NCBI GenBank assembly: GCA_041660065.1
Contig: JBAZXC010000006.1
Location: 4,984 to 68,983, forward strand
Direction of reading: 5' to 3'
Length of the DNA: 64,000 nt
DNA from: Parcubacteria group bacterium
GTDB taxonomy: Bacteria; Patescibacteriota; Minisyncoccia; Moranbacterales; GCA-2747515
Positions 231-47,581 of this stretch are shown here, piece by piece. The stretch's first letter is position 1. Each line of letters opens with the position of its first letter. The notes beneath the pieces were generated by a model, which saw nothing but the letters and a program-made list of their open reading frames with translations, searched no databases and was not told where the DNA came from. The translations under genes were made by a program, and so were the position numbers.

Positions 231-462
231 AAACTTCCCTCGGTATTATCCTAACATGTGACAGGTTATGTCACAATAGGACTCCACCGATATAAGTCGA
301 TTTCTCATATATGATCGCTCATATACGCCGCCGTGTATGATGTCTTTTTCCTCGGGTTCAAACTGTACAAAAGTCAAAAGTTCATAATATTATAAAGTCC
401 ATAAAAAGTTTGGCATTCCAAAAATTTATAAACTTTAAAACTTTCTACTTTATAACTACTGT
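1..462 (-). mobile_element. Group I-type intron (partial, continues past window start) interrupting the 23S rRNA at the site homologous to E. coli 2593, which is also the I-CreI homing site
   Basis: In rRNA sense the sequence reads GAGCTGGGTTCAAACCGT up to the base at + position 463. It then departs from the universally conserved CGTGAGACAGTTCGGTCCC tract (ACAGTAGTTATAAAG...). The inserted stretch contains an I-CreI-like ORF. Exact splice junctions and the P1-P10 core are not resolved by eye. Confidence 0.6.
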
Positions 463-509
463 ACGGTTTGAACCCAGCTCGCGTACCACTTTAAACGGCG
501 AACAGCCGT

Positions 510-567
<58 letters not shown>

Positions 568-598
568 ACTCCGTCGATGTGAACTCTTGGGAGTGATA

Positions 599-629
<31 letters not shown>

Positions 630-789
630 ATGATCTTCCACACTCCTACAAGTGATGGTCGGTTCACTAACTTCTACTTTCGTAACTGAGCGACTTGCTT
701 GTCTTTCAGTAAAGCTGGTTTATGCGTTTGCACTATCGGCCCGATGTCCATCCGGACCTAACCAACCTTTGTAAACGCCTCCGTTACAT

Positions 790-821
<32 letters not shown>

Positions 822-1331
822 ACCAGGCACTGTTCCTGCACCGGTAGCTATATTCAACACGAGTAGTAAATTTAGTAGTACTTTTTAATCATCAGACGAG
901 TCTTATAAAATAAAATTTTATAAGCAGTTAGTGAATTCTTTTAAGTGAAAATTTTCCACGTCAAAGATCCCTCCGTACAAAACATTCTAAAAAACGCTTT
1001 GTTTTACGAAGGGCTTCACTACTCGCCTGTTGATCATATGTACCTTTGAATTTACACTCTGTAAAATACACCTAACGGTGCAAGGTTAGAATCAAAACTT
1101 CAGCAGGGTGGTATTCCACTGTTGACTCCACCGCTCCCTAAAGAGCAGCTTCAAAGTCTCCCACCTATTCTCGGCAACTAAAACTCTAATTCAATGCCAA
1201 GCTGTAGTAAAGCTCCACGGGGTCTTTTCGTCTAGCTGTAGGTAGGGGGCATCTTTACCCCCATTGCAATTTCACCGAGCACCTGGTTGAGACAGTTCCC
1301 ATCTCGTTACACCTTTCATGCGGGTCGGAAT

Positions 1332-1363
<32 letters not shown>

Positions 1364-2809
1364 GATTATAGTTATCGCCGACGTTCACTGGCGCTTCGGG
1401 GATCCGCGTAAACTTCTCCCGTTAACGTTCCAGCACTGGTCAGGTGTCACCCCCTATACATCCTCTTACGAGTTAGCAGAGAGTTGTGTTTTTGGTAAAC
1501 AGTCGAATGGGCACTTTAGCTTCGTCCAGCACCTATTTCAAAAATGATCGTCAAAATTTTTAACATTCATGAGCGATAGCGACTGCATCTTTTATCACTA
1601 TCAAATCTCTATGATCATCTCTAAAATAGGTGCTGGAAAGACATTTAGCGAACGTACGTCTAGCTTTTTTGCCGAGTTCCTTAACCAGGTCTCACTCATT
1701 CATCTTAGGCTACTCGCCCTATCTACCTGTGTCGGTTTACGGTACGGGTGTGTATATATTGAAGCTTAGAAGCTTTTCCTGGTACCCTGCTCACTACTAT
1801 TAATTCCTCCGAAGAGAAACGACTGTCCATATCTCGGATTATTGTATGGCGGATTTGCCTACCATACATCCTCAATACGTCCACATCAATCCAATAAGAT
1901 GCAGTAGCTACAAGAATACGTCACTCCATCGCATATATACACAGTGCAGGAATATTAACCTGCTGTCCATCGACTACGCCTTTCAGCCTCGCCTTAGGAC
2001 CGACTAACCCTGGGATGATTGCCATTGCCCAGGAAACCTTAGATTTTCGATGTGCACGGATCTCACGTGCATTGCGGTTACTCATTCCAGCATTCTCACT
2101 TCCTTGCGTTCCACCGGTGGTCACCCATCCGGCTTCGGCACACAAGGAACGCTCTCCTACCACTTGTAGATAAATCTACAAATCCGCATCTTCGGTATTA
2201 TACTTGAGCCCCGTTACATTTTCGGCGCAAGATCTCTAAACTAGTGAGCTATTACGCTTTCTTTAAAGGATGGCTGCTTCTAAGCCAACCTCCTAGGTGT
2301 CTGAGAAATCTCACTTCCTTTTCCACTGAGTATAAATTTTGGGACCTTAGATTGCGATCTGGGCTTTTTCCCTTTTGAACTACGAGCTTAGCCCCGTAGT
2401 TCTGACTGCCGCTGTACGATCATGAGCATTCGGAGTTTGGTTGAGCGCCCTACCTTGCGGCGGGAACTCATTCAGTAGCTCTACCTCCCATGATTAATTA
2501 AAGCGACGCTAGCCCTAAAGCTATTTCGGAGAGAACCAGCTATTGCCGAGCTCGATTGGAATTTCTCCTCTACGCACAAGTCATCCCCTGATGTTGCACA
2601 GTCAGTGGGTTCGGGCCTCCCACAACTTTTACATTGTGTTCACCCTGCTCATGCGTAGCTCGCCCGGTTTCGGGTCTAGTTCCTATGACATATTCGCCTG
2701 TTACAGCTCGCTTTCACTATGCATCGGTTACAGAGTAACTTATGCAAGCCATAGAAAACTAACTCGCTGGATCGTTCTACAAAAAGCACGCAGTCACCCC
2801 TCACCCAAA

Positions 2810-3070
2810 TTACTCTAAACTTTCTTTGACATGTTTTATCAATTGATATTTTGCCTTACCATTATGCTTCAAACGATATTCTCTCGTCCGTGCGGCACTG
2901 AGCGTTATCCACGACTCATAATAAACAATTTTCCAATGATGTGATTTTGTTGATCTGTTTTGACCACTGTTATGTGAATCAAAACGCTTTTTCAAATCAC
3001 TTGTACATCCGACGTAGAAAACTTCTCTATCATCAGTTGCTTGCAAAGCATAAACATAATGCATACGCAT
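2810..3070 (-). CDS. GIY-YIG domain protein, YhbQ/UPF0213-like, 86 aa, encoded inside the 23S helix-25 IVS
   Basis: MRMHYVYALQATDDREVFYVGCTSDLKKRFDSHNSGQNRSTKSHHWKIVYYESWITLSAARTREYRLKHNGKAKYQLIKH. GIY (YVYAL), YIG (FYVGCT) and R..EHN.G motifs are present, with a C-terminal REY..K block like YhbQ/YazA. Same strand as the rRNA. Confidence 0.65.
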   Translation of the reverse strand: MRMHYVYALQATDDREVFYVGCTSDLKKRFDSHNSGQNRSTKSHHWKIVYYESWITLSAARTREYRLKHNGKAKYQLIKHVKESLE

Positions 3071-3089
3071 ATATTTATACAGTTAAAAT
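2812..3089 (-). other. Intervening sequence (IVS) inserted in the loop of 23S helix 25 and closed by a 15-bp extended helix. Almost its whole length is an ORF.
   Basis: In rRNA sense ...GGAGCCCCTCACCCAAATT is the revcomp of 3090..3104. A 278-nt insert follows. AATTTGGGTGAGGGGTGACTGCGT (revcomp of 2797..2811 onward) then resumes the conserved GUGACUGCG of helix 25. The two arms are perfectly complementary. Too short for a group I intron; the position matches the classic RNase III-excised IVS site of Salmonella/Leptospira. Confidence 0.6.
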
Positions 3090-3159
3090 AATTTGGGTGA
3101 GGGGCTCCTACTCTTTGTTAGCGTATAGTTTCAGTTCTATTTCACCTCCCTCTACGGGA

Positions 3160-3201
<42 letters not shown>

Positions 3202-4110
3202 TGAGACAATATTTAGTCTTGGAAGTTAGTGCTCCCGGATTCAGACGGGGTTTCTCCGGCCCCGCCCTACTTGAGAATAAACTCACCTATTATTTTTTCT
3301 TTTCGTGTACAGGACTTTTACCTTTTATAGTCACACTTTCCAGAGTATTCCACTAAGAAAAAATTATTGGCCCCGCTCTAAGCGAGTCCGCTCATCTCGC
3401 AACCCCGTTCCTAATAAAAGAAACGGTTTAGACTGTTCCGCTTTCGCTCGCCACTACTGACGGAATCTCATATTGATTTATATTCCTCCTGGTACTAAGA
3501 TGTTTCAATTCCCAGGGTTTGCTTTCATAACCTATGAATTCAGTTATGAATTTCCACTTGCGTGGAAGGATTGCTCCATTCGGACATCTCCGGTTCACAG
3601 CTTGTTTGGTAGCTCCCCGAAGCTTTTCGCACCCAACTACGTCCTTCATCGCTCGTCTCAGCCAAGGCATCCACTATACGCCCTTTGTAACCTCTTTCTT
3701 TTATTTCATCAAAATCTATAAAGAATTGACAATTAAGAGAAACTTAACTGCAATTTTTATATCATTCAACAAAATTTAATGAGTGTATTGTTCATTTGAT
3801 CTTTTGGGTCAAATGAAATTGCTTAACCTATTTGTTGCTTTCTTCTGATATGACCACACATGTGTTCCGCAACAAATATGCGCGTCATTCAAAAATTTAT
3901 ATGCAGTTGTGAAAGTTCACACGTGCCTTGCCGTAGCTCACAAAAGCGACAGTAGGTTCTGCGGAAACAAGTAAATCTCTTTCACCATGTTTCCGCACAA
4001 CATTCTTTCATGTTTCAAACAAACAAAAAACGAGACATGTGCCTATATGTATTCTCGCTTGCGTCGCTCTTTCTCCGGCCGCACTTGACGTCCTCAGAGC
4101 AGTACTACCT

Positions 4111-5482: not shown

Positions 5483-6364
5483 TTATGGTCGTGACAGTTT
5501 TTCGTAGAGATCAGGATAAGTGTCCTGGATATCTGCAAGAAATTTTTTGCCGTGTCCGACACGCGTATCGATTGGGATGCCGTCCTTACACAGAGGACAC
5601 TGCTCTCTAGGATCTCGTGAAAGATCCATAGAGTAGTTTGTAGCCACAACATCCGTAAGTGCTTGTGCAAACTCAATGCAATATTCATCCTTGAGCGCCG
5701 TGAGTCCCGGATTTTTTTCACTGATCCGATTACACGCAGCGATAAAACCCACAAAATTACCAAATGATGAAATGATAAAGTCTGCTGTTTCACGCAAGCT
5801 TTTCGCTGAGTTGATCACGTCCTCGACCTGCATGGTACGCTTCCCTCTAATACGATCTCCATGATCCTTATACCACACCAATCCATTGTGAAATTTGAGG
5901 AGTGGTTTGAGAACTTCTATTGCCCGTCCATCGGTAAATTTTGTGTTATACCATGCAACGAAATTTGCCAGTGCATTCACATCATTTTGAAGTTTGAGTG
6001 GTTTGAGAACTTCAACAGCCCGTCCTCCGGTGAATTTTGTGTAATAATACGCGACAAGTGTTGCCAACGTATCCGCACCATGTGGTGTTCCTACGAAGGC
6101 ATCAATTTTCTCATCACGACATTCCCATGCCATCTGCATTGCTACAACACATAATTGTGCCACAGTTTTGAGATCACGAATATTTATATATGCATCTCCG
6201 TGACCCCCCCCTGAATAACCAAAGTGTCCCTTTAAGGCGACACCTTCATTTTCAAAGTATCCCCACACGCCGAGTTTTGCAATTGTATGCTCATACAATG
6301 CGAGATCAACAGCACCGTGCCGTGACAATACATCAAGATCAATTGGTGTAAAATGATCCATCAC
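5483..6364 (-). CDS. pyrE: Orotate phosphoribosyltransferase-like protein with an internal 33-aa tandem duplication
   Basis: GHFGYSGGGHGDAYINIRDL aligns to the PyrE GEFTLKSGRKSPYFFN block. IDAFVGTPHGADTLATLVA aligns to the PRTase loop. WYKDHGD...RTMQVEDVINSAKSLRETADFI aligns to NRKEAKDHGEG...[21 protein letters not shown]. Adjacent to pyrF. Confidence 0.6.
   Translation of the reverse strand: MMDHFTPIDLDVLSRHGAVDLALYEHTIAKLGVWGYFENEGVALKGHFGYSGGGHGDAYINIRDLKTVAQLCVVAMQMAWECRDEKIDAFVGTPHGADTLATLVAYYYTKFTGGRAVEVLKPLKLQNDVNALANFVAWYNTKFTDGRAIEVLKPLLKFHNGLVWYKDHGDRIRGKRTMQVEDVINSAKSLRETADFIISSFGNFVGFIAACNRISEKNPGLTALKDEYCIEFAQALTDVVATNYSMDLSRDPREQCPLCKDGIPIDTRVGHGKKFLADIQDTYPDLYEKLSRP
5889..6083. 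repeat. Diverged in-frame tandem duplication (99 nt + 96 nt) inside pyrE
   Basis: Copy 1 TGAAATTTGAGGAGTGGTTTGAGAACTTC... against copy 2 TGAAGTTTGAGTGGTTTGAGAACTTC.... At protein level YYTKFTGGRAVEVLKPLKLQ.. / YNTKFTDGRAIEVLKPLLKF... About 70-75% nt identity, so not a trivial assembly artefact. Confidence 0.7.
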
Positions 6365-6691: not shown

Positions 6692-9580
6692 CTATGGTCG
6701 CGTCTCGATCATACGTCCATCACTTCCGATGTCCGTGTCATCATTTACCGTTGTCGTTGTGTCTGGCACACTTTCTTTTATTGCACTGCAAATTGTATTT
6801 GTTCCGCCGTAGAGGCCTTCACATTCCCAGTTCCATCTACCATCTGATGCGTTTTGATCGGTCCAAATCACGTTACCTGTATCACAGAGATTTGATGATG
6901 GTTGAATAAAATATGTTTGACCGTCAGCCAGCCCGCACTCACCATTGCTTGCAGGTGGCATTGTGTATTCGCATTTTTGTGTATCTGTGCACGCTGTGAC
7001 TTGTTGCCATGGCGTATTTACTATGAGACCTCCGTCATCGCCCAGGCACCATGTTGCGCCTTGCGGCGGGTTACCGCCTGTGCAGGAGTATGCCGGCATT
7101 GTGTATTCGCATTTTTGTGTATCTGTACATACTGCGACTTGTTGCCATGCGGTATTTGTCGTGATATTTATATCGTCTCCCATACACCATATTGCACCTT
7201 GTGGCGGAGTACCTGTGCATGTGTATGATGGCGCAAGACGTGCTGCAGAACACGTTGCATTCGTACCACCGCCAGATCCGTTACATGTCCACGTCACCGT
7301 ACTATCTACACCATATGCACCTGATGGAAAACTCACTGTTGCCGGAGATGGTGTGCCAGCAGAGCAAAGAGGTGTGGATGGACCGGTTGCAGTATATACA
7401 TAATTATTTCGTGTTGAAGCAGAATTACATACTCCATTAATTGGAACAACACAAGAACCGACCGTAATATCCCAATAAAGAGTTGTGCCTCCGAGACTCA
7501 TTGTTGTGAAACTTGGGTTAGTATATTGCGTGTTTCCTCCTCCACAACCTATATGCTCATCCGTGGGAGAAACCCAGTAAGTAGAGTTGCTAGCGGTACA
7601 TCGATTCTGACCCAAGATGCTTCCGCCACATGACAACTTGGGTGTTCTAAACTCCTCGCATCTCGGTTTGTAATACGCGATAAGAGACCAAATACGCACG
7701 GTTGAACCATTAAGTTTCGCTGTAATTCTGGCCGTTCCAGATGCTCCGGCTACAGCAGCGCAGGTCATTCCCGAACATGTCATTACACTGGGGTTATTTG
7801 AAACTAAGCTAGGATTACCGGGCTGACTACCGGTAAAGTAAATATACCCACCCCGAGCACCATTACCACTGATATATTGACCGACGGCGGGAAGATTATT
7901 GCCGAAACAGCTTGCCGAAGTATAGTTACTGCATAGTGTTCCATACGGAGTGTCCCAAGATCCTCCACTAGCGTTAAATGTCAAATCAGAACCATAGCCA
8001 AAGCTTACTGAACCGCCACAAGGAACACTCGTACTAGTTACATTCATATAGCTATTCAAAGTGACATCGCCGGTAGAGATCGTGGCATAACCATTAGATA
8101 GATTATAGGGACTTGAAGACAACGCAGTTTGATCCCCCGCTGCCGAAGTCCCGTGACTCGACAATACTCCTCCAGTAACCAATAACCCGAAGATAAATAT
8201 ACCTAGTCTCGGCCCTCGATATCCTTTGATGATTCTGATCAACACGATTATGATAATAATAGTTACAATAAAGAGCACAACATAAGCGAAAATCTTCACA
8301 AAACCATTCATTCCCACCAGTCCGCTCACGTCTACTGTCTTGCATTCGTTGAGTTGGGCGCAATCATACGTTATTTCATAATGGTCAACGACATTCCCGT
8401 CCTTATCTCTAATCTCTGCTTTCAGTCCAACATAGTCATAATCCCGACGGGCAGAGATATCCGTCTTAGCGGCTGACATAGCGGAAGGAATATTGCCATC
8501 ATATTTTAATTCCCCGATCTCATTACCATCCCTATCCGACAACACAGCTCGGACGTTCCCACTCGTATTGACGTTAGTGGAATTGTGAAAACAGGAGAAA
8601 AGAGTGAAGGCGTCGCCTTTTTTGATCGGGAATTTAGTGATAGCAGGATAGTTGAGCCGCGCACGTGGCGCATCTGTTGCGAAACGAACATTGATAATGG
8701 ATTTCGTATCGTCATAGCTGGCAATTGTCTTCAGATAATATACACTGCCGGAAGTATCTGGCACTTTATATGAGATATCAGCCGTGCCGTTGGCCGGAAC
8801 AGTGACCGTCAAAGTCTTCTCGTCCAAACGGTCATCTTTGTTGAGACTGTCCCATCGGTAGAGCTCCTGAGTGACATTGACGACTTTTGTCTCACCAAAA
8901 GAATTGCGCAATACATTATTGATAGTAACTTCCGAGCCAGCGGTGATTTTTGGCCAACTGCCGATCTGGTTATATTTATCTCCATTGAAAGTCGTAGCCG
9001 ACTTATCGAAGGCAACAGCAGTGGTGATTGTCGAGCTTATATTAAAACGTGCCACACCGGCAGTTACTTCGTTGGAAAAAGACAACCCACCCAGATTGAA
9101 TTTCTTGCCAACTGAGAAGAAATAATCAACAACGTATGCTCCATTGCCTTCGTAAACCGGAACGTTCCAGATAAAATCGACTTTTTTCTCACTCTTTGCA
9201 TCAATGGAAATGTCTTTTACGGCAATGAACTCATCTACGATATTTTGACCCTCTTGCATGTAATTATCATTCGCTCTTCCGATCCGAACAAAAAGATTAC
9301 CGTCTACAACAGGATAATTATTGTCATTCTTGACCATTCCGACAAAATGCATCTCCGTCCCAGGCTGATAGACCTGCTGATCCGGTCCGACACTGACTAT
9401 AACAGATTGGAACTTGTAATAATCAAAACAATCCACATCATTCGCCGTTGCACCAACTGCCGGCCAATCAGAACCTTCTATTGTGTCTTTCGCAATTTCT
9501 TCATCAGACACCTGTGCAAAAACAAAAAAACCTGGCACAAAAATAAGCGAAAGGATTATTCCAAAAATGATCTTCTTCAT
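6692..9580 (-). CDS. Large (962 aa) secreted/cell-surface protein: signal peptide, N-terminal domain, two central TM helices, Cys/Gly/Thr-rich C-terminal domain with tandem repeats
   Basis: MKKIIFGIILSLIFVPGFFVFAQ signal. TM helices FVKIFAYVVLFIVTIIIIIVLIRII and LGIFIFGLLVTGGVLSS lie mid-protein. The C-terminal half has many Cys and a duplicated WQQV.ACTDTQKCEYTMP module. Confidence 0.6.
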   Translation of the reverse strand: MKKIIFGIILSLIFVPGFFVFAQVSDEEIAKDTIEGSDWPAVGATANDVDCFDYYKFQSVIVSVGPDQQVYQPGTEMHFVGMVKNDNNYPVVDGNLFVRIGRANDNYMQEGQNIVDEFIAVKDISIDAKSEKKVDFIWNVPVYEGNGAYVVDYFFSVGKKFNLGGLSFSNEVTAGVARFNISSTITTAVAFDKSATTFNGDKYNQIGSWPKITAGSEVTINNVLRNSFGETKVVNVTQELYRWDSLNKDDRLDEKTLTVTVPANGTADISYKVPDTSGSVYYLKTIASYDDTKSIINVRFATDAPRARLNYPAITKFPIKKGDAFTLFSCFHNSTNVNTSGNVRAVLSDRDGNEIGELKYDGNIPSAMSAAKTDISARRDYDYVGLKAEIRDKDGNVVDHYEITYDCAQLNECKTVDVSGLVGMNGFVKIFAYVVLFIVTIIIIIVLIRIIKGYRGPRLGIFIFGLLVTGGVLSSHGTSAAGDQTALSSSPYNLSNGYATISTGDVTLNSYMNVTSTSVPCGGSVSFGYGSDLTFNASGGSWDTPYGTLCSNYTSASCFGNNLPAVGQYISGNGARGGYIYFTGSQPGNPSLVSNNPSVMTCSGMTCAAVAGASGTARITAKLNGSTVRIWSLIAYYKPRCEEFRTPKLSCGGSILGQNRCTASNSTYWVSPTDEHIGCGGGNTQYTNPSFTTMSLGGTTLYWDITVGSCVVPINGVCNSASTRNNYVYTATGPSTPLCSAGTPSPATVSFPSGAYGVDSTVTWTCNGSGGGTNATCSAARLAPSYTCTGTPPQGAIWCMGDDINITTNTAWQQVAVCTDTQKCEYTMPAYSCTGGNPPQGATWCLGDDGGLIVNTPWQQVTACTDTQKCEYTMPPASNGECGLADGQTYFIQPSSNLCDTGNVIWTDQNASDGRWNWECEGLYGGTNTICSAIKESVPDTTTTVNDDTDIGSDGRMIETRP
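6959..7234. repeat. Two tandem 138-nt (46-aa) repeats inside the surface-protein gene
   Basis: CATTGTGTATTCGCATTTTTGTGTATCTGT(G/A)CA... begins at 6959 and again at 7097. The protein module C(L/M)GDD...WQQV.(A/V)CTDTQKCEYTMP occurs twice. Confidence 0.7.
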
Positions 9581-21224: not shown

Positions 21225-21356
21225 ATCTTTGTTTTTGTGTCCATCTCGTAACATTATATCATCAAAAGTCCAAGAAAACAAAAAAAATAAAAACACACAT
21301 CATAAAACGATGTGCATTTTTATTTCTGATTGTCCTCATGTCTACCAGTCCATCCT

Positions 21357-21372
21357 GTCGCTCGCGAGCGAC
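21357..21372. repeat. Perfect 16-nt GC-rich palindrome GTCGCTCGCGAGCGAC (copy 1) between groEL and pilB
   Basis: Self-complementary. The same core with a longer 28-nt perfect palindrome recurs at 28823..28850. No adjacent T-tract. Confidence 0.6.
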
Positions 21373-21398
21373 GAGACTGCATGTCTAATAATCGATAA

Positions 21399-26372: not shown

Positions 26373-26642
26373 TCATGGGCTCCACTCTTGTCCGGCTCCA
26401 ATGATCGCCCACAGCATAAAGGGCGGAACGATAAGGACAAGGAACGCCACATCGAATACTCTTTGCCACAGCAATGCACCTACAAAAAACAACCACCCGA
26501 TAACCACCGCAACCGCAAAAACAAGCAACATGCCAAACAGCACATTCATGATCATCGTTTTGATCTTTTTCTTCTCATCGCCATACGCGTGTGCCATATG
26601 TTCCCCCTTTAAAAAGTTTTTAAAAAACTTGTCTGACATCAA
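26373..26642 (-). CDS. Small membrane protein (2 TM)
   Basis: MLLVFAVAVVIGWLFFVGALLW and VAFLVLIVPPFMLWAIIGA segments. The start may be the downstream MAHAYGD. Confidence 0.4.
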   Translation of the reverse strand: MMSDKFFKNFLKGEHMAHAYGDEKKKIKTMIMNVLFGMLLVFAVAVVIGWLFFVGALLWQRVFDVAFLVLIVPPFMLWAIIGAGQEWSP

Positions 26643-26676
26643 ATAGATAGATTATGCCGTACACAACTATGCAACA

Positions 26677-26775
26677 AACTTTTGTCATTCTGAACTTGTT
26701 TCAGAATCTCAAAATTATGACTTATATAGATACTGAAACAAGTTCAGCATGACATAAATATTAAATGAGCTCCGT
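26677..26775. repeat. About 100-nt palindromic repeat element, copy A (two hairpins in inverted orientation plus a conserved tail AATATT.AATGAGCTCCG)
   Basis: About 89% identical to 46197..46296 over ~98 nt. Arms are TGTCAT(T/C)CTGAACTTGTTTCAG(A/G)ATC and GAT(A/G)CTGAAACAAGTTCAGCATGACA. T->C and A->G differences between the copies preserve pairing. Confidence 0.7.
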
Positions 26776-27270
26776 ATCATATATTTTAACATCCATCGCA
26801 TAGCGCTTCAAAAAACGCAGGAAATCTTTTGTAGAAATTTTGAGTGATGCCGTGTTGCGAAACGGATGGAAATGCACAGACGCATAATCAAAAATTTCTT
26901 TATCCACCACAACACCCACTTCTCCGGCGTTTTCATGAATGAGACCAAACGGCGTCACGGACCCCGGCGTAAGTCCGAGATTATTTTCCAAGCGATCCGC
27001 TGATGCAAAACCCATCTTGCGATGCTCGCCCAAGAATTCCGCCAGATGCGGGATATCGATATTTTTTTGCGCACACAATATGACGAGATAATGCTTGCGT
27101 CCGCGACGATTTTGCATAAAAGCATTTTTGCAATCCACCCCCATATCATGATCGCGATAAAAACTCCCCGACGCCTCCACCGTCCCAAAAGCCGGATGTT
27201 CGAATTTTTCATAAGGAATATTCATTTCATCCAATATTTTATATAATTTTTGTTCGTATAGATCTGCCAT
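26761..27270 (-). CDS. YbaK/ProX-family aminoacyl-tRNA deacylase (prolyl-tRNA editing domain protein)
   Basis: MADLYEQKLYKILDEMNIPYEKFEHPAFGTVEASG...HYLVIL...LGLTPGSVTPFGL. The track ORF extends 40 codons upstream through two REP hairpins (EQVVKPAPA duplicated), so the start is taken at the internal Met. The last 4 codons overlap the palindromic repeat element. Confidence 0.55.
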   Translation of the reverse strand: MADLYEQKLYKILDEMNIPYEKFEHPAFGTVEASGSFYRDHDMGVDCKNAFMQNRRGRKHYLVILCAQKNIDIPHLAEFLGEHRKMGFASADRLENNLGLTPGSVTPFGLIHENAGEVGVVVDKEIFDYASVHFHPFRNTASLKISTKDFLRFLKRYAMDVKIYDTELI

Positions 27271-27307
27271 GCATTTTTTTAAAAATTCAAAACTTTTACC
27301 TACCGCA

Positions 27308-27373
27308 GGAGCAGGTTTTATAACCTGCTCCAACCTTTTCCACTTTGCAGGAGCAGGTTTTACAACCTGCTCC
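27308..27373. repeat. Two REP hairpins (27308..27331 and 27350..27373), GGAGCAGGTTTT(A/T)(T/C)AACCTGCTCC, immediately 3' of the RAYT gene
   Basis: 10-bp perfect GC-rich stems with 4-nt loops. The same unit recurs at 27967, 28020 and 28742. Confidence 0.75.
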
Positions 27374-27379
27374 GAACTT

Positions 27380-27877
27380 TTATAGCTCATCCACTTTCAG
27401 TTCACATAACTCATTCGCCGAAGACCAATACCAATCTTCCGGCTTCATCACATAATTCTTTCTGACAGGATTATTATGCATATATGTTAACTTATTTTGG
27501 AAAAAAGATTCCAATCCTATACATTTCGGCATATTGGTTTTTTGCCAAAACTCATAATTTCCTTTCTGGTCTAAAAATAACTTCAGAACCGTCGGTTCGT
27601 TTTTAATAAGATTTTTTCTAAATTCTCCGGATGTAAATCGCTTGAAATCGCGTACAAAACCGGACACATCCGGTGACTGAACGATCACGTGAATATGATT
27701 GAGTATAAAAACAAAACCGTATAATTTTAATCCTTTATGTTCTCGACAATATGCGAGAGAATCAGCCAAAATATGCCACCGATGATGACGGTCGAAAAGA
27801 TAATACCATCTTGCAACAGTCATGGTTAAAAAATATATATCTTGATTGAAATCTTTTGATATACGTACTGATGGCAT
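27380..27877 (-). CDS. REP-associated tyrosine transposase (RAYT; IS200/IS605-like Y1 HUH transposase, TnpA_REP)
   Basis: YFLTMTVARWYYLF N-terminus, HUH motif LNHIHVIVQ, catalytic Tyr region NYEFWQK...LTYMHNNPVRKNYVMKPEDWYWSS (Y.H.NPV...PEDW.WSS signature); 165 aa; flanked on both sides by REP hairpins. Confidence 0.75.
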   Translation of the reverse strand: MPSVRISKDFNQDIYFLTMTVARWYYLFDRHHRWHILADSLAYCREHKGLKLYGFVFILNHIHVIVQSPDVSGFVRDFKRFTSGEFRKNLIKNEPTVLKLFLDQKGNYEFWQKTNMPKCIGLESFFQNKLTYMHNNPVRKNYVMKPEDWYWSSANELCELKVDEL

Positions 27878-27966
27878 GAGCCTATTTTAACACAATCACA
27901 AAAACACAAAAGAGGGTTTTTCTATTGGCGGTTTGTTACCTGTGACGGAATATTCACAATTTTGCA

Positions 27967-28043
27967 GGAGCATAGTTGTACTATGCTCCGTAATGTTTAT
28001 TATGTGAGATAAAATGAAAGGAGCAGGTTATAAAACCTGCTCC
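27967..28043. repeat. Two REP hairpins 5' of the RAYT gene: a variant GGAGCATAGTTGTACTATGCTCC (27967..27989) and GGAGCAGGTTATAAAACCTGCTCC (28020..28043)
   Basis: Same architecture as the 3' REPs. The variant copy has compensatory stem changes (CATAG/CTATG). Confidence 0.7.
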
Positions 28044-28049
28044 TGCGAG

Positions 28050-28090
28050 ATAAATTTAAAACCAGACCTCACACGCGTGCGAGATCTGGT
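28050..28090 (-). terminator. Rho-independent terminator for gene 28099..28599
   Basis: CCAGACCTC-ACACGCGTGC-GAGATCTGG hairpin, followed on the minus strand by TTTTAAATTTAT. Confidence 0.5.
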
Positions 28091-28098
28091 ATAGTGTT

Positions 28099-28599
28099 TT
28101 ACATCACTTTATTTGCCACCACCAAATCGGTAGCGGACCCCTCAATATCGAAGTACTTCCGAAGAATTTTAATCTTTTCTTCCAGTTCACCGATGCACTT
28201 TTTGAGATTTTCTTGATCCAAGTTGTTTAATGGATCTGTCGTAAACCCCAACACACCATCCTTGAAGATTCCCGTCGCATGGATGAATTGCAAATTTCTG
28301 ATCATACTATTCCACTCAGAGTTGAGCAAAATTTTAATCTTTTCATCAGAGTCATGATCAATGCCAATCTGGCTTTGTGCAAATTTGAGTATGCGGACCG
28401 AATGCTCCGCATGACTGATCTTTGCGATCTCACTCAAACGATACACGGCAAATGATTTTTTCTCCTCAGCCTGTGACATTGGCTGTGACATTGGCGGCGT
28501 GGAAACAAATGAGACAATAAGTCTGCCTAGAAAAATGCCCAACAACAATGCCAGACCGATAACAAAAAGCCATTTTACTTTTCTCCCTTGATTTTTCAT
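28099..28599 (-). CDS. Hypothetical membrane-anchored protein (166 aa) embedded between REP clusters
   Basis: Start at ATG after AGAGGAGG. MKNQGRKVKWLFVIGLALLLGIFLGRLIVSFV anchor; no recognisable domain. Confidence 0.4.
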   Translation of the reverse strand: MKNQGRKVKWLFVIGLALLLGIFLGRLIVSFVSTPPMSQPMSQAEEKKSFAVYRLSEIAKISHAEHSVRILKFAQSQIGIDHDSDEKIKILLNSEWNSMIRNLQFIHATGIFKDGVLGFTTDPLNNLDQENLKKCIGELEEKIKILRKYFDIEGSATDLVVANKVM

Positions 28600-28741
28600 T
28601 GGATGTAACCTCCTCTTTTTATTGAAAAAATCAACTATATTAAATAACTCCATATGAATTGATACAACCGTCCATTGTACACCTAAATCGTCATTTTGTC
28701 AATATTTCTGCAACATTATTCAATAGTAAAAAAAGCTCGCA

Positions 28742-28765
28742 GGAGCAGGTTTTACAACCTGCTCC
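28742..28765. repeat. REP hairpin (fifth copy), GGAGCAGGTTTTACAACCTGCTCC, with a conserved 3' tail
   Basis: The ~55-nt block GCAGGAGCAGGTTTTACAACCTGCTCCGAACTTTT.ATA.CTCATCCACTTTCA is nearly identical to 27347..27400. Confidence 0.75.
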
Positions 28766-28822
28766 GAACTTTTCATAACTCATCCACTTTCAATTCTCTA
28801 CTCCCCAACTCCTACCCTTATA

Positions 28823-28850
28823 GTCCCGTCGCTCGCGAGCGACGGGACTG
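28823..28850. repeat. Perfect 28-nt palindrome AGTCCCGTCGCTCG|CGAGCGACGGGACT (copy 2 of the GTCGCTCGCGAGCGAC core)
   Basis: Perfectly self-complementary; ~50 nt downstream of ychF; no flanking T-tract on either strand. Confidence 0.6.
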
Positions 28851-33310: not shown

Positions 33311-33502
33311 AGCAGTTTTATACAAACAATATTATCACCAAAAAAAACTGTGACTTGTACTCATGGTCAATGTACCGTCATTGCAATCCGCCTTGTGTGA
33401 AGAAAAATCTACCTACCGTTAGACAGGAAATCTTTTTGCAATATGCACCATTAGCCCCCTGTCATTCCCATGAAAACGGGAATCTATTTTCTCGTTTATG
33501 TG

Positions 33503-35338: not shown

Positions 35339-37138
35339 TTATGGTCTGCCCGCAGCCGTATACGTCACTGATCCTTCGTATTCTCCTGCGATCTGTGTGC
35401 TGGGGACATTGACGCGGTAGCAGATCTCTGTATCTGTGTGGGTGTTGCTGTAGGTTGTGTGTCTCATGATGTCTGTTGTGGTGTGCGGGATACCGGCGTA
35501 GAGTTGATCTGGATCATCACACGTTGTGCCTGTGCCCCACCATGATTCATTCTTTGTGGCTGTGGAGTTTAGGATACCAAAGCCTAGTCCTGTTGTTGTG
35601 AAGGTTTGTGCATTGGGGGTTGCGGGGTCCCATGGGGTTTTGTCTTGGATCTGTCCGTCACTTGTAGCTGATTGTGTTGTGTGATAGAGGGTGTTGTCTG
35701 ATCCTCTGTCATTGGTGAGTTGGAGATCGTAGCCATTGTCATCGTTTGTGGTGACGGTGCAGGTTGTGGTGTTTGACTGTGGGGTTTGGGGTATGAGTGT
35801 GGAACCATTGTCGATGTCTACATCTGTGCCACAGTCGAGTGTAAGGTTTTCTCCGATGGTTGCGGAGATGTTGTTTGATCCTGATTCGTTTATTTGTAAA
35901 GTTTGAAAGCTTGTTTCATCACTGGAGGTTGTGCCTGCACTGTTTGTTGCGTAGGCTTGGACGTAATATGTTGTGCCTGGGGTGAGGTTTGTGAGAGTGC
36001 AGGAGTAGTCTCCGACTCCTCCTGTTCCTGCGGAACAGGAGTCCGTGTAGTTACCACTTTCTGTACCCCAGTGGATGAGACGTTCTGGGTCTTCGCCTCC
36101 TGTTTCTGTGATTGTGCCGTTTCCTGTAGCTGTGGTGTCTGTGATGGAGGTGGGGGATGGGGTTTGGGTGGGGAGGGTGGGAGAAACAACGGGTGGAGTC
36201 GCATCCATCGCAGTCATAATAAATCCAGAGAAAGCTACAGCAACAAGTTGACTGTCACCATACACAATGGCATATCCATATTCGCTACTCTGAGACATCG
36301 TATATTCATCCCAATTGACACCATCAGAGGATACCATGTATATATTATTATCCGCCAAAACAACAAATTGATCTCCTCCATAACCTACCACACTCCAATT
36401 TATAGTCACTGGCAATGAAGGCGTCGCCCATGTAGTGCCACCATCAGAAGATGTATAAATTGTACTGCCTCCAGCTTCTGTGACAACAAAAAGACCATTT
36501 CCATAGGCAATTGAACCAAGACCACCGCTTGTCCCAGAAACAGTATGATCCGTCCAATTGATCCCATTAGATGACGTAGCCACAGTATGCGACATGCCGT
36601 CCAGAGCAACAAATACTCCATCACCATATGCCATCGCATCCCAATCAAGCCCCGACATTGTACCACTATATTGCGTCCAATTTATACCATCTATTGATAC
36701 AGCGACTTTGGACATGTATGATTCGGTCGCTACAAAAATGCCATTACCGTATTCTAATTCATACCAATAATAATCTGTAAGTGTTGCAGAATGTGTCCAA
36801 TTTACACCATCAGGCGATGTGAGAACATAACCGTCATCTTGAGAAAGAAGCACAAAAACACCGTTACCATAGACAACCGTCTGCCAGTCATGCGACAACG
36901 GCAAATTCCTGTGTGTCCAATTTACACCATCAGGCGATGTATAATAATCAGAACCAGTAACGCTTCGAACTGCAACATACATCCCATTTCCATAGGCGAC
37001 TGTTCCATACGATGTTCCAATTCCCGTCACCTGCGTATTCCACTCAAGCTCGGCTGCACTAACATTATAAGTAATCCCCATACAGCCAATCATAACTGTC
37101 ATAAAAGCCACATACAAAAATATCTCTTTATTTTTCAT
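35339..37138 (-). CDS. Secreted BNR/Asp-box repeat beta-propeller protein with a fibronectin type III domain
   Basis: Signal peptide. Seven or more repeats of YGNG.FVA...S.DG.NWT (Asp-box S-x-D-G-x-x-W). FN3-like segment (GTTYYVQAYATNSAGTTSSDETSFQT). 599 aa. Confidence 0.6.
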   Translation of the reverse strand: MKNKEIFLYVAFMTVMIGCMGITYNVSAAELEWNTQVTGIGTSYGTVAYGNGMYVAVRSVTGSDYYTSPDGVNWTHRNLPLSHDWQTVVYGNGVFVLLSQDDGYVLTSPDGVNWTHSATLTDYYWYELEYGNGIFVATESYMSKVAVSIDGINWTQYSGTMSGLDWDAMAYGDGVFVALDGMSHTVATSSNGINWTDHTVSGTSGGLGSIAYGNGLFVVTEAGGSTIYTSSDGGTTWATPSLPVTINWSVVGYGGDQFVVLADNNIYMVSSDGVNWDEYTMSQSSEYGYAIVYGDSQLVAVAFSGFIMTAMDATPPVVSPTLPTQTPSPTSITDTTATGNGTITETGGEDPERLIHWGTESGNYTDSCSAGTGGVGDYSCTLTNLTPGTTYYVQAYATNSAGTTSSDETSFQTLQINESGSNNISATIGENLTLDCGTDVDIDNGSTLIPQTPQSNTTTCTVTTNDDNGYDLQLTNDRGSDNTLYHTTQSATSDGQIQDKTPWDPATPNAQTFTTTGLGFGILNSTATKNESWWGTGTTCDDPDQLYAGIPHTTTDIMRHTTYSNTHTDTEICYRVNVPSTQIAGEYEGSVTYTAAGRP

Positions 37139-45718: not shown

Positions 45719-45825
45719 TGTACATTACCTCCAAAAGAGTTTTTTGTTGTTTTGATACCAATGAACTACTCCTGCGAAATACTATACCAAATCATACAAA
45801 CTTTGTCTATAATAAAAAATAAAAA

Positions 45826-45851
45826 ACACCATTCTATTATGGTGTTTTTTA
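45826..45851 (-). terminator. Rho-independent terminator after the ferredoxin gene
   Basis: AAAAAACACCAT-TCTATT-ATGGTGTTTTTT. Confidence 0.6.
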
Positions 45852-45860
45852 TGATCATAT

Positions 45861-46109
45861 TTAGTCATTATAGCCACTGATCTTGATGATCTGTACGGGA
45901 CATGAGTCTGCCGCCTCTTTGTTTGCTGTCAATGCATCTTCGTCGATCTCCCCCACCATGAATTCCTCACCCTTCCACTGCGCACCGGCAAGCATCGCTT
46001 TGCCATCCTCCTGACTCATAGACCATTGTTCCGGTGCCGCCATTGTACACGCGCCACAACCGATACAATCATTGCGCTTATGACTTACTGTGATCTTGTT
46101 TGTTCCCAT
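45861..46109 (-). CDS. 4Fe-4S ferredoxin
   Basis: CIGCGAC...ADSCPV cluster-binding motifs; 82 aa. Confidence 0.75.
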   Translation of the reverse strand: MGTNKITVSHKRNDCIGCGACTMAAPEQWSMSQEDGKAMLAGAQWKGEEFMVGEIDEDALTANKEAADSCPVQIIKISGYND

Positions 46110-46196
46110 ATATGTGATTGATTTAAAAATTACTCTCCAAAAAATTATTTAATATAAATGTCATTTTTCTCCTATATAAGCAATTATTGAAAGTAA

Positions 46197-46296
46197 ATTT
46201 TTGTCATCCTGAACTTGTTTCAGGATCTCACGTGTATGACTTATATAGATGCTGAAACAAGTTCAGCATGACACGAATATTGAATGAGCTCCGATG
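46197..46296. repeat. About 100-nt palindromic repeat element, copy B
   Basis: See copy A (26677..26775). In this copy both hairpins are perfect (ATCCTGAA-CTTGT-TTCAGGAT and ATGCTGAA-ACAAG-TTCAGCAT). Confidence 0.7.
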
Positions 46297-46312: not shown

Positions 46313-47581
46313 TCACTTTTCATTTTGATATTGTGTCCGTTTTTTGACCACGTACATCTTATCATTGATCCGCACACGATCCGACACCACAAATGTCACG
46401 ATGTCCTTTTTTTGTGCAGTTTGAATAATCTCGTTATCACGGCGCAGTTCTTGAATTTTTACCTCCAATGCACCGGTTGTCGCACCGATAAAGATCACCT
46501 CATCTCCCACATTGACCTGTCCTGCGTCAATACATACCTCCGCCACCGATGGCTTTTTGTAATAATGCACGACATGTCCCACGAATTCCTTTGTGTGTGT
46601 CGCGCGTGAACCATAGACATCGCAATATGCGCCAATCTCTTTGCCGAGATAATAATTTCCATGTGACAATTTTCGGTTAAACACTTTTTCAAGATCATGG
46701 TAGTATGTGTGAATTTTTTCTTGCGTATATGTGCCTTGCGCAATATCCGCCAATGCTTTTTTATACGTTCGTACAACTGTCGCCACATATTCCGGCGATC
46801 GTCCTCGCCCCTCAATTTTCAAAACCTGCACACCGGCATCCAACACCTTATCCAAAAAATCGATCGTGCAAATATCCGCTGCACTCATCACATAGTGATT
46901 ATCGATCACCATTTCCTTCCCTGTGTCCACATCCGTCACCTTATACTGCATCCGACAGTTCTGACGGCAAGCCCCACGATTTGCACTGGCATTGTACGCA
47001 TAGAGACTCATATAACACCGCCCAGACTGCGCGATACACAATGCGCCATGTGCAAATGCTTCGATTTCCATCAGTCGTCCCTCATTGCCCATTAACTTTT
47101 CCTCGCAAATTTTGTGATGGATATTTTTGATCTGATCAAGATTGAGCTCTCGTGCAAGCACGATGCGATTGGTAAACTGCGCAAAAAATTTCACCGTCTC
47201 ATAATTGGAAATAGAGAATTGCACAGACATATGCACCGGCATGACGATTGCATTGCAATAATTCACACATGCAAAATCATAGGCAATGATCGCATCGATC
47301 CCGCTTTTTTTTGCCGCATTAATGATCTTTTTCATCACGGTCACATCATGGTCATAAAGGATCGTATTGACCGCCAAGTATGTTTTGACACCGCTTTTGC
47401 GTGCAATACGCGCGACTTCCTCCAAATCCTCGATCGTCATATTATCCGCCGCACGCGCACGCATATTGAGCTGTGTCACGCCAAAATATACACTATCAGC
47501 CCCGGCATTGATCGCCGCCGCCAATGATTCAAAACTCCCCACCGGCGCCATCACTTCCGCTTTTTGTGGATCGATCATCAT
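46313..47581 (-). CDS. Peptidase U32 family protein (collagenase-like; RlhA/TrhP/YegQ type)
   Basis: 422 aa. N-terminal TIM-barrel-like region with conserved Cys (ALCIAQSGRCYMS...GACRQNCRMQY), typical of U32. Confidence 0.65.
   Translation of the reverse strand: MMIDPQKAEVMAPVGSFESLAAAINAGADSVYFGVTQLNMRARAADNMTIEDLEEVARIARKSGVKTYLAVNTILYDHDVTVMKKIINAAKKSGIDAIIAYDFACVNYCNAIVMPVHMSVQFSISNYETVKFFAQFTNRIVLARELNLDQIKNIHHKICEEKLMGNEGRLMEIEAFAHGALCIAQSGRCYMSLYAYNASANRGACRQNCRMQYKVTDVDTGKEMVIDNHYVMSAADICTIDFLDKVLDAGVQVLKIEGRGRSPEYVATVVRTYKKALADIAQGTYTQEKIHTYYHDLEKVFNRKLSHGNYYLGKEIGAYCDVYGSRATHTKEFVGHVVHYYKKPSVAEVCIDAGQVNVGDEVIFIGATTGALEVKIQELRRDNEIIQTAQKKDIVTFVVSDRVRINDKMYVVKKRTQYQNEK

Follow-up and report, generated by a model that had tools for sequence, protein, structure and literature searches.

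A TGTC-tagged REP doublet in a probable 154-nt mobile unit within the U32 peptidase–ferredoxin spacer of a Parcubacteria genome

The palindromic repeat that separates the genes for a U32 family peptidase and a small ferredoxin (hereafter copy B) is, in all likelihood, a head-to-head (HH) dimer of TGTC-tagged CGTC-2 REPs carried in a 154-nt non-autonomous mobile unit, which inserted into the 49-nt spacer of the U32–ferredoxin operon. This reading draws on an insertion polymorphism between close relatives: the window (the whole 64-kb stretch of Parcubacteria group DNA analysed here) contains the unit at this site, and the contigs L121 and L122 of a close relative have the same U32–ferredoxin site empty. 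That copy B is an insertion is the part of the initial annotation's reading that the comparison of genomes bears out. The filled and empty sites form a clean pair, from which it appears that what moved exceeded the REP dimer in size—and the host range of the CGTC REP family now reaches the Patescibacteria, a group with very small genomes in which repetitive DNA is generally believed to be scarce.

Repeat structure of copy B

Copy B had been described as the second copy of an element present elsewhere in the window (copy A), with two perfect hairpins and a position between the U32 peptidase and ferredoxin genes, and all three points were confirmed. In a repeat search of the 64-kb window, positions 46195-46293 and 26676-26774 formed an ungapped alignment of 99 nt with 89% identity. 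Each copy contains two inverted arms of about 28 nt, and the 15-mer core of the arm, CTGAACTTGTTTCAG, has exactly four exact sites in the 64 kb, one per arm and in opposite orientations within a copy; no further site resembling this core came closer than 3 mismatches anywhere in the 64 kb. Two dimers and one CGTC-1-like singleton can be counted within the window. The features of copy B and its flanking genes are as follows.

46313-47581, minus strand: U32 family peptidase gene, upstream of copy B (Pfam PF01136, E 7e-65); stop codon 20 nt from the insertion
46246-46273, minus strand: REP arm 1, the 5' arm on the gene strand; TGTC tag at 46270-46273, 8-bp stem ATGCTGAA/TTCAGCAT, loop CTTGT, tail CTA
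46230-46245, no strand assigned: inter-arm spacer of 16 nt; TATAAG beside arm 1 is conserved and the remainder variable in the alignments
46202-46229, plus strand: REP arm 2, inverted; TGTC tag at 46202-46205, stem ATCCTGAA/TTCAGGAT, loop CTTGT, tail CTC
45861-46109, minus strand: small 4Fe-4S ferredoxin gene, downstream of copy B (Pfam Fer4_15, Fer4_13); its ATG lies 27 nt beyond the insertion
26690 (plus), 26733 (minus), 46209 (plus) and 46252 (minus): sites of the core CTGAACTTGTTTCAG

On the gene (minus) strand, arm 2 reads GAG, ATCCTGAA-ACAAG-TTCAGGAT, GACA. The tags of the two arms point outwards, which makes copy B an HH heterodimer. Both stems consist of eight Watson-Crick pairs, and folding as DNA gave −6.7 kcal/mol for arm 1 and −6.1 kcal/mol for arm 2, values equalled by none of 200 shuffles. 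The whole doublet can also be folded as one long hairpin, with −36 kcal/mol (z −6.2) as RNA on the gene strand and −22 kcal/mol (z −8.3) as DNA. The long stem contains two mismatches, C.C and G.G; within each arm, precisely these bases pair with each other, which marks the local hairpins as the conserved structures.

In Rfam, copy B matched no family at the gathering threshold, the best score being that of AaHKsRNA41 (34.6 bits against a threshold of 97), and the same search across the whole window returned only LSU rRNA and one tRNA. The sub-threshold match to AaHKsRNA41 (Aggregatibacter sRNA 41) covers 46140-46276 on the minus strand with an E value of 2.5e-6; the consensus hairpin of that family, GCUGAgCUUGcCGAAGCAUC, is like the arm, and the "sRNA" may itself be a REP-dimer-like repeat. 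The 23S rRNA match (401-3697, minus strand) measures 3297 nt against a model of 2925 positions, some 370 nt being extra as insertions or an intron.

Copy B is no assembly chimera or artefact, since an independent short-read assembly (Logan SRR18595301; contig L209, with a U32 gene 100% identical) reproduces the same junction between U32 and the element, with the contig ending inside the first arm. This break within the arm also hints at the existence of more copies.

Filled and empty sites at the U32–ferredoxin spacer

The spacer between the U32 and ferredoxin genes spans 203 nt in the window, with the element present. The gene pair is conserved in relatives, and the corresponding spacers were compared at decreasing U32 identity.

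L121/L122, U32 identity 89%: spacer of 49 nt from the U32 stop to the ferredoxin ATG; element absent
L123/L124, U32 identity 85%: spacer of 92 nt; element absent
L125, U32 identity 80%: spacer of 113 nt; element absent
L126, U32 identity 78%: spacer of 113 nt; element absent

The empty site in L121/L122 reads ...GCGAGCATCGG|AAAGTAATTTTTAAATC..., with flanks as in the window, which is longer by 154 nt. The same flanks with 154 extra nucleotides identify copy B as part of a lineage-specific insertion, the parts of which can be delimited as follows.

About 46137-46292, minus strand: inserted unit of copy B, 154 nt by comparison with the empty site; the junctions are ambiguous by 2 nt (GG)
46274-46293, minus strand: left tail, CGGAGCTCATTCAATATTCG; its TCATTYRATAT core is kept in all four known copies
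46137-46201, minus strand: right tail, AAAATTTACTTTCAATAATTGCTTATATAGGAGAAAAATGACATTTATATTAAAT...; non-palindromic, inside the 154-nt insertion and part of the moved unit

Read along the minus strand, the unit begins with the left tail and continues through a REP arm, the spacer and the inverted REP arm to a right tail of some 65 nt that is rich in A and T. As to the extent of the element, the initial annotation had in view only the repeat: the conserved 99 nt are real and end at 46293, whereas the full insertion measures 154 nt. Set against the empty site, this length and the conserved tails show that the candidate moved unit is larger than the REP dimer contained in the 99-nt repeat. The 154-nt difference may instead represent a loss from L121 rather than a gain in the lineage of the window, and the outgroup spacers, being unalignable, do not permit a strict choice between the two.

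Conservation of the tails was assessed in an alignment of four copies (copies B and A of the window, L205 and L208). The right tail is homologous to the sequence that follows the dimer in L205/L206, with a local alignment score of 36 against 18.9 ± 2.9 for shuffled sequences, one of 300 shuffles reaching 36, and the alignment extends this homology to L208. A BLAST search with the tails against all loci retrieved found no additional copies. On the minus strand of the right tail (46148-46189), an AGGAG-N5-ATG arrangement precedes a 13-codon ORF (MTFILNNFLESNF), and a 14-codon ORF (MAFKLNQLLVKIHY) occupies the equivalent place in L208 (~563-607). This mini-ORF was rejected as a coding feature because L205 does not have the ATG.

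The small size, the inverted repeats and the intergenic insertion polymorphism are also what one would see in a classical MITE, i.e., an internally deleted insertion sequence mobilised by a DDE transposase through terminal inverted repeats and leaving target-site duplications. We consider this origin very unlikely: the arms of copy B are subterminal, with non-inverted tails of about 20 nt and 65 nt outside them; the insertion junctions have only GG in common, and there is no target duplication beyond this possible GG; across the family, partner arms usually differ while each is self-complementary, which points to recognition of hairpins and not of duplex ends; and no parent insertion sequence was found in the window. 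As regards a target motif, four copies are too few to define one.

Copy A and related copies in other genomes

The remaining repeats of the window that bear on copy B are copy A and a single REP of another type, the latter found by a generic scan for GTC-tagged hairpins.

26676-26775, minus strand: copy A, with arms at 26683-26710 (plus) and 26727-26754 (minus) and without the right tail
33460-33486, plus strand: single REP, TGTC-ATTCCCAT-GAAA-ACGGGAAT-CTA (= TGTCATTCCCATGAAAACGGGAATCTA), CGTC-1-like with a 4-nt loop, between convergent genes

Near the single REP, a degenerate CGTCATTGCAATCC lies at ~33377, about 83 nt upstream and in the same orientation. A third palindrome family, GTCCCGTCGCTCGCGAGCGACGGGAC, has two copies in the window (21353-21379 and 28824-28850) that are 93% identical and carry CGTC and GACG at symmetric positions.

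One arm of copy A has a single mismatch, which is A.C on the plus strand and G.T on the minus strand. The left tail of this copy forms the last codons (ELI*) of a tRNA_edit/YbaK-like gene (26761-27270, minus strand)—an arrangement indicating that REP doublets can also rewrite the end of a gene. In contigs L205 and L206, from the sample series that also yielded the empty-site relative, the same tRNA_edit/YbaK-like gene is likewise followed by the element, and their copy shares with copy A a T-A variant in one arm as well as the TAATTTT spacer. Because a close relative carries a copy downstream of the same gene, copy A is, judging by these loci, older than copy B. The junction between gene and element in L205/L206 differs by about 20 nt from that of copy A, and the L205/L206 copy may represent a second insertion at almost the same place. 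In the more distant L207, no element was found downstream of the tRNA_edit gene. The second REP arm of L205 (3073-3092; also in L206) has a sequence of ~20 nt, ACTTGCCTACTGGCAGGCAG, itself a small hairpin, nested in its loop.

The fourth known copy was obtained from metagenomes: a scan with the spacer plus an arm gave no match, and a less specific scan gave one locus, L208. This groundwater-type metagenome contig carries the same composite unit at an unrelated site, immediately upstream of trmD, a position not comparable to the operon positions of copies A and B.

The distances to the downstream start codons, initially put at 35 nt for copy A and 88 nt for copy B, were re-examined. The 35-nt figure stems from an upstream TTG at 26642; homology to L207 (MAC... 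versus MAH...) and a GGGGGA ribosome-binding site place the start of the gene downstream of copy A at ATG 26597. With this correction the spacings become 79 nt and 87 nt, and the contrast disappears.

Operon context and the question of a regulatory role

The organism names attached to homologues of the flanking proteins are Candidatus Moranbacteria/Moraniibacteriota, Patescibacteria group and Parcubacteria group, which assigns the window to a CPR bacterium, Parcubacteria/Moranbacteria-like in character. One U32 homologue (P0103, 501 aa) has C-terminal Fer4 domains and so represents a fusion of both genes that flank copy B, which supports a functional coupling of the two. From the conservation of the pair in relatives and its fusion in P0103, we infer that U32 and ferredoxin are probably co-transcribed as one operon and that copy B lies inside it. 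The only terminator-like hairpin nearby is at 45819-45852, after the ferredoxin gene, and a consensus scan of 46137-46296 detected neither terminator-like nor promoter-like (sigma-70-like) sites and no U tract.

A hairpin situated just past a stop codon could, in principle, be an intrinsic terminator or an ordinary gene-end hairpin that was duplicated by chance, a proposition we regard as barely credible. On the gene strand, AAAAATTT comes after the stem, the consensus scan has no call inside the element, the actual terminator-like hairpin is the one beyond the ferredoxin gene, and 99 nt at 89% identity are not attainable by chance.

The idea that copy B is a cis-acting RNA element kept in place for its role—as a stabiliser, a processing site or an uncoupler of U32 and ferredoxin expression—deserves a fuller hearing, even if we judge it improbable. 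Copy B begins 20 nt past the U32 stop within the probable operon and folds into the strong gene-strand RNA hairpin described above; the imperfect arm of copy A would pair as G.U on the transcribed strand, compared with A.C on the other; and many uni-REPs, which lie near the 3' end of the upstream ORF, have been argued to be transcribed (PMC3733652). However, relatives at all four levels of U32 identity have the gene pair without the element, only the arms are conserved across the family while spacer and flanks are not, copy B contains neither a U tract nor a promoter, copy A overlaps with a stop codon, and the context of the L208 copy, directly upstream of trmD, is a different one. These observations, together with the Rfam result, do not uphold the regulatory role that the initial annotation had proposed for the site. 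Copy B gives no sign of being a dedicated regulatory site, and any regulatory effect would be generic.

The same annotation had pointed to the shared placement of the two copies, 3' of one minus-strand gene and 5' of the next, as a hint of an insertion preference or a regulatory role. A position 3' of the upstream ORF in a same-direction pair does agree with the placement described for uni-REPs (PMC3733652). As evidence of either it is almost weightless, since ~61% of adjacent ORF pairs in the 64-kb window are minus-minus and a single shared orientation amounts to a 1-in-2 event; about half of the intergenic bases fall between such pairs. The majority of genes are on the minus strand, and the GC skew of the plus strand is negative throughout the window. 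Diverged tandem repeats occur within long minus-strand ORFs at 5900-6081, 6957-7213 and 36306-37007; there are units of 96 and 138 nt, and the ORF at 35339-37138 shows a periodicity of 120-123 nt.

Distribution of the arm family

To place the arms of copy B in a broader frame, genomes were scanned at one per species with the query GTCATNCTGAACTTGTTTCAGNATC, in which one stem position was left free. The 25-mer arm was found at no fewer than 120 genome loci (i.e., at least 120) in many phyla. Among the matches listed, the carriers comprise Patescibacteria, Gracilibacteria, Bacteroidota, Sphingomonadales and other Proteobacteria, Nitrospirota, Treponema, Elusimicrobia, Melainabacteria, Ignavibacteria and one Nanoarchaeota MAG. 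The last of these (L012, 2672-2696), whose contig bears the label of a Nanoarchaeota archaeon MAG, combines an exact 25-mer arm with an adjoining variant partner arm and reflects either cross-domain transfer or a binning error.

Of 141 arms among the matches listed, 136 have a Watson-Crick pair at the free stem position, and 130 carry a pyrimidine ahead of GTC (C in 74, T in 56). The partner orientation in the same matches is HH in 57 cases, TT in 8 and HT in 4, and heterodimers account for 57 of 62 HH pairs; where partner arms differ, 91 of the 104 differing stem positions still pair within their own arm. Across the family (again among the matches listed), the arms alone are conserved, and the spacer and flanks are not. 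This pattern indicates that the local hairpins are under selection, not the long inter-arm stem.

Some carriers hold the repeats in tandem arrays, as seen in a Melioribacteraceae MAG (L073, 233-869) with five dimer units of ~146 nt, in Ignavibacterium (L025, 1528-1634) with 82-nt units and in Treponema (L032, 95-217) with 98-nt units.

The arm is carried by 77 stretches from IMG/VR. A BLAST search with the element found no match among cultured phages and a single 28-nt match among plasmids, on a Treponema plasmid with no feature beneath it; in light of both results, the IMG/VR stretches are weak evidence for phage carriage. An all-against-all clustering of the ORFs within 1.5 kb of the arms at 197 loci revealed no gene family that recurs beside them and spans phyla, and the clusters that did form contained only related virus-like contigs and spurious high-GC ORFs.

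The RAYT gene and the candidate mobilising enzyme

The window contains one gene for a Y1 transposase, a RAYT, accompanied by palindromes of its own.

27380-27877, minus strand: RAYT gene (NCBIfam NF047646, 84.2 bits against a cut-off of 80, E 7.7e-24), with HIH and YxxxNP motifs
27305-27339 and 27347-27381: GCAG-tagged palindromes, with an inverted copy at 28017-28051, a variant at 27966-27990 and a further copy at 28739-28773

Together these make up a REPtron-like locus (27305-28796), in which palindromes with a GCAG tag and a 10-bp stem (GCAGGAGCAGGTTTTACAACCTGCTCC) flank the RAYT; the palindrome copy at 28739-28773 is succeeded by a second copy of the 3' end of the RAYT gene (28771-28796).

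Could this RAYT mobilise the CGTC-type dimer in addition to its own flanking palindromes? The ORF passes the NCBIfam model and retains the HIH and YxxxNP motifs, the gene is ~600 nt from copy A, and the doublet architecture is REPIN-like. Moreover, L205-L207 are without the whole RAYT-palindrome block at this site, and the relative represented by L121/L205 also does not have the newer copy B—although it may have a RAYT elsewhere in its genome. However, the repeats that flank the gene have the form GCAGGAGCAGGTT-TTAC-AACCTGCTCC and are not TGTC hairpins, a tblastn search with the window RAYT found no homologue near an arm among the 120 arm loci listed, and a tyrosine transposase gene flanked by CGTC REPs was found in none of the CGTC-positive species (PMC3733652). 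We therefore give this proposal a slim chance: an action of the window RAYT on TGTC doublets is possible but unsupported.

In the later literature, we found no paper that resolves how CGTC REPs move, and a literature search by the sequence of the element or its encoded peptide had no match. Our best guess for the mobiliser of CGTC REPs is an enzyme of the HUH/Y1 type, a choice that we make tentatively and would not be surprised to see overturned.

Proposed mechanism and implications

We suggest that the 154-nt unit would spread as other REP, REPIN and IS200/IS605-type elements do, with the arms folding as hairpins on single-stranded DNA and the unpaired tag lying alongside. A nuclease or transposase acting in trans would then recognise the hairpin and its tag, cut the strand and rejoin it without creating a target duplication. 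Once inserted, the unit would be transcribed within the U32–ferredoxin mRNA as a stable hairpin that is not followed by a U tract, and would at most influence the processing or stability of this mRNA in a generic way, as a side effect and not as the reason for its presence.

A more far-reaching possibility, to which we assign an outside chance, is that the 154-nt composite is the true transposing unit of CGTC REPs and was recently active in a small Patescibacteria genome that carries a RAYT acquired where close relatives have none. If this were the case, the composite could lead to the enzyme that moves the CGTC REP superfamily and to the sites at which it cuts, and could explain why near-identical arms occur in a dozen phyla. 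CGTC REPs are widespread (PMC3733652). For annotation purposes, such doublets should be masked as repeats and not be taken for regulatory sites or small ORFs.

Comparison with known repeats and mobile elements

The ends of IS200/IS605 elements, which are processed by the Y1 HUH transposase TnpA, resemble the copy B unit in their subterminal imperfect hairpins, their asymmetric ends and the fact that no target duplication is seen. The copy B unit differs in having no internal transposase or accessory gene, and its four copies yield no target tetranucleotide.

REPINs, or BIMEs, are doublets of GTAG-tagged REPs mobilised by RAYTs (Bertels & Rainey 2011, PMC3116915; Nunvar et al. 2010, PMC2817692). 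They share with copy B the two inverted REPs and short spacer, which can form two hairpins or one long hairpin, and are likewise non-autonomous, multi-copy and intergenic. The tag, however, is TGTC here as opposed to GTAG (or GTGG), and there is no cognate RAYT flanked by TGTC REPs, i.e., no REPtron—the RAYT of the window being associated with other palindromes. In addition, near-identical TGTC arms occur across phyla, whereas REPIN-RAYT systems have been characterised as lineage-specific, with vertical inheritance.

Three other repeats, RPE-4 and RPE-6 of Rickettsia and dRS3 of Neisseria, have been assigned to the CGTC families (PMC3733652). Like copy A, which supplies the last codons of the tRNA_edit gene, these repeats can overlap coding regions or extend into them, but they differ in stem and loop sequences; RPEs are also often in frame within genes, and dRS3 occurs in large clusters.

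The closest comparison is with the CGTC-tagged REPs defined by Di Nocera, De Gregorio and Rocco (2013, BMC Genomics 14:522; PMC3733652). According to that study, the tag is CGTC, often altered to TGTC and with CCTC allowed; the stem has 8-9 bp and opens with complementary A-T and T-A; the loop has 4-5 nt, with a 5-nt loop and an 8-bp stem characterising CGTC-2; and an unpaired 3-nt tail has the consensus CCA. Most are HH dimers, with heterodimers being typical of CGTC-2 and CGTC-3, and the five phyla from which they were reported do not include the host phylum considered here (Patescibacteria/Parcubacteria). Other differences are found in the tails, which are CTC or CTA in the window versus CCA (CCA-like tails, ATC-CAT or ATC-CAC, do occur at sphingomonad loci among the matches listed), in the spacer, which is short here with 16 nt between tails, and in the unit that moved, which exceeds the dimer at 154 nt and includes conserved non-palindromic tails.

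The similarities to CGTC-2 extend from structure to sequence. All four dimer arms of the window have the TGTC tag and the 5-nt loop CTTGT; the 8-bp stem, AT-N-CTGAA / TTCAG-N'-AT, is perfect in three of the four arms and has one G.T in the fourth; copies A and B are both HH heterodimers; and the elements are intergenic, located near where the upstream ORF ends, and without an adjacent transposase gene. A further parallel comes from an intragenic CGTC-2 unit of Sulfurovum that encodes RHSELVSGS (additional file of PMC3733652): the window arm TGT CAT CCT GAA CTT GTT TCA GGA TCT translates to CHPELVSGS in the same frame, and the two peptides differ at positions corresponding to the first base of the tag and to the covarying stem base, the nucleotide match being deduced by back-translation of the Sulfurovum peptide. 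On the strength of these sequence comparisons, copy B is best filed as a CGTC-2 REP member in HH heterodimer form, which shares every testable defining feature of that group except the tail consensus.
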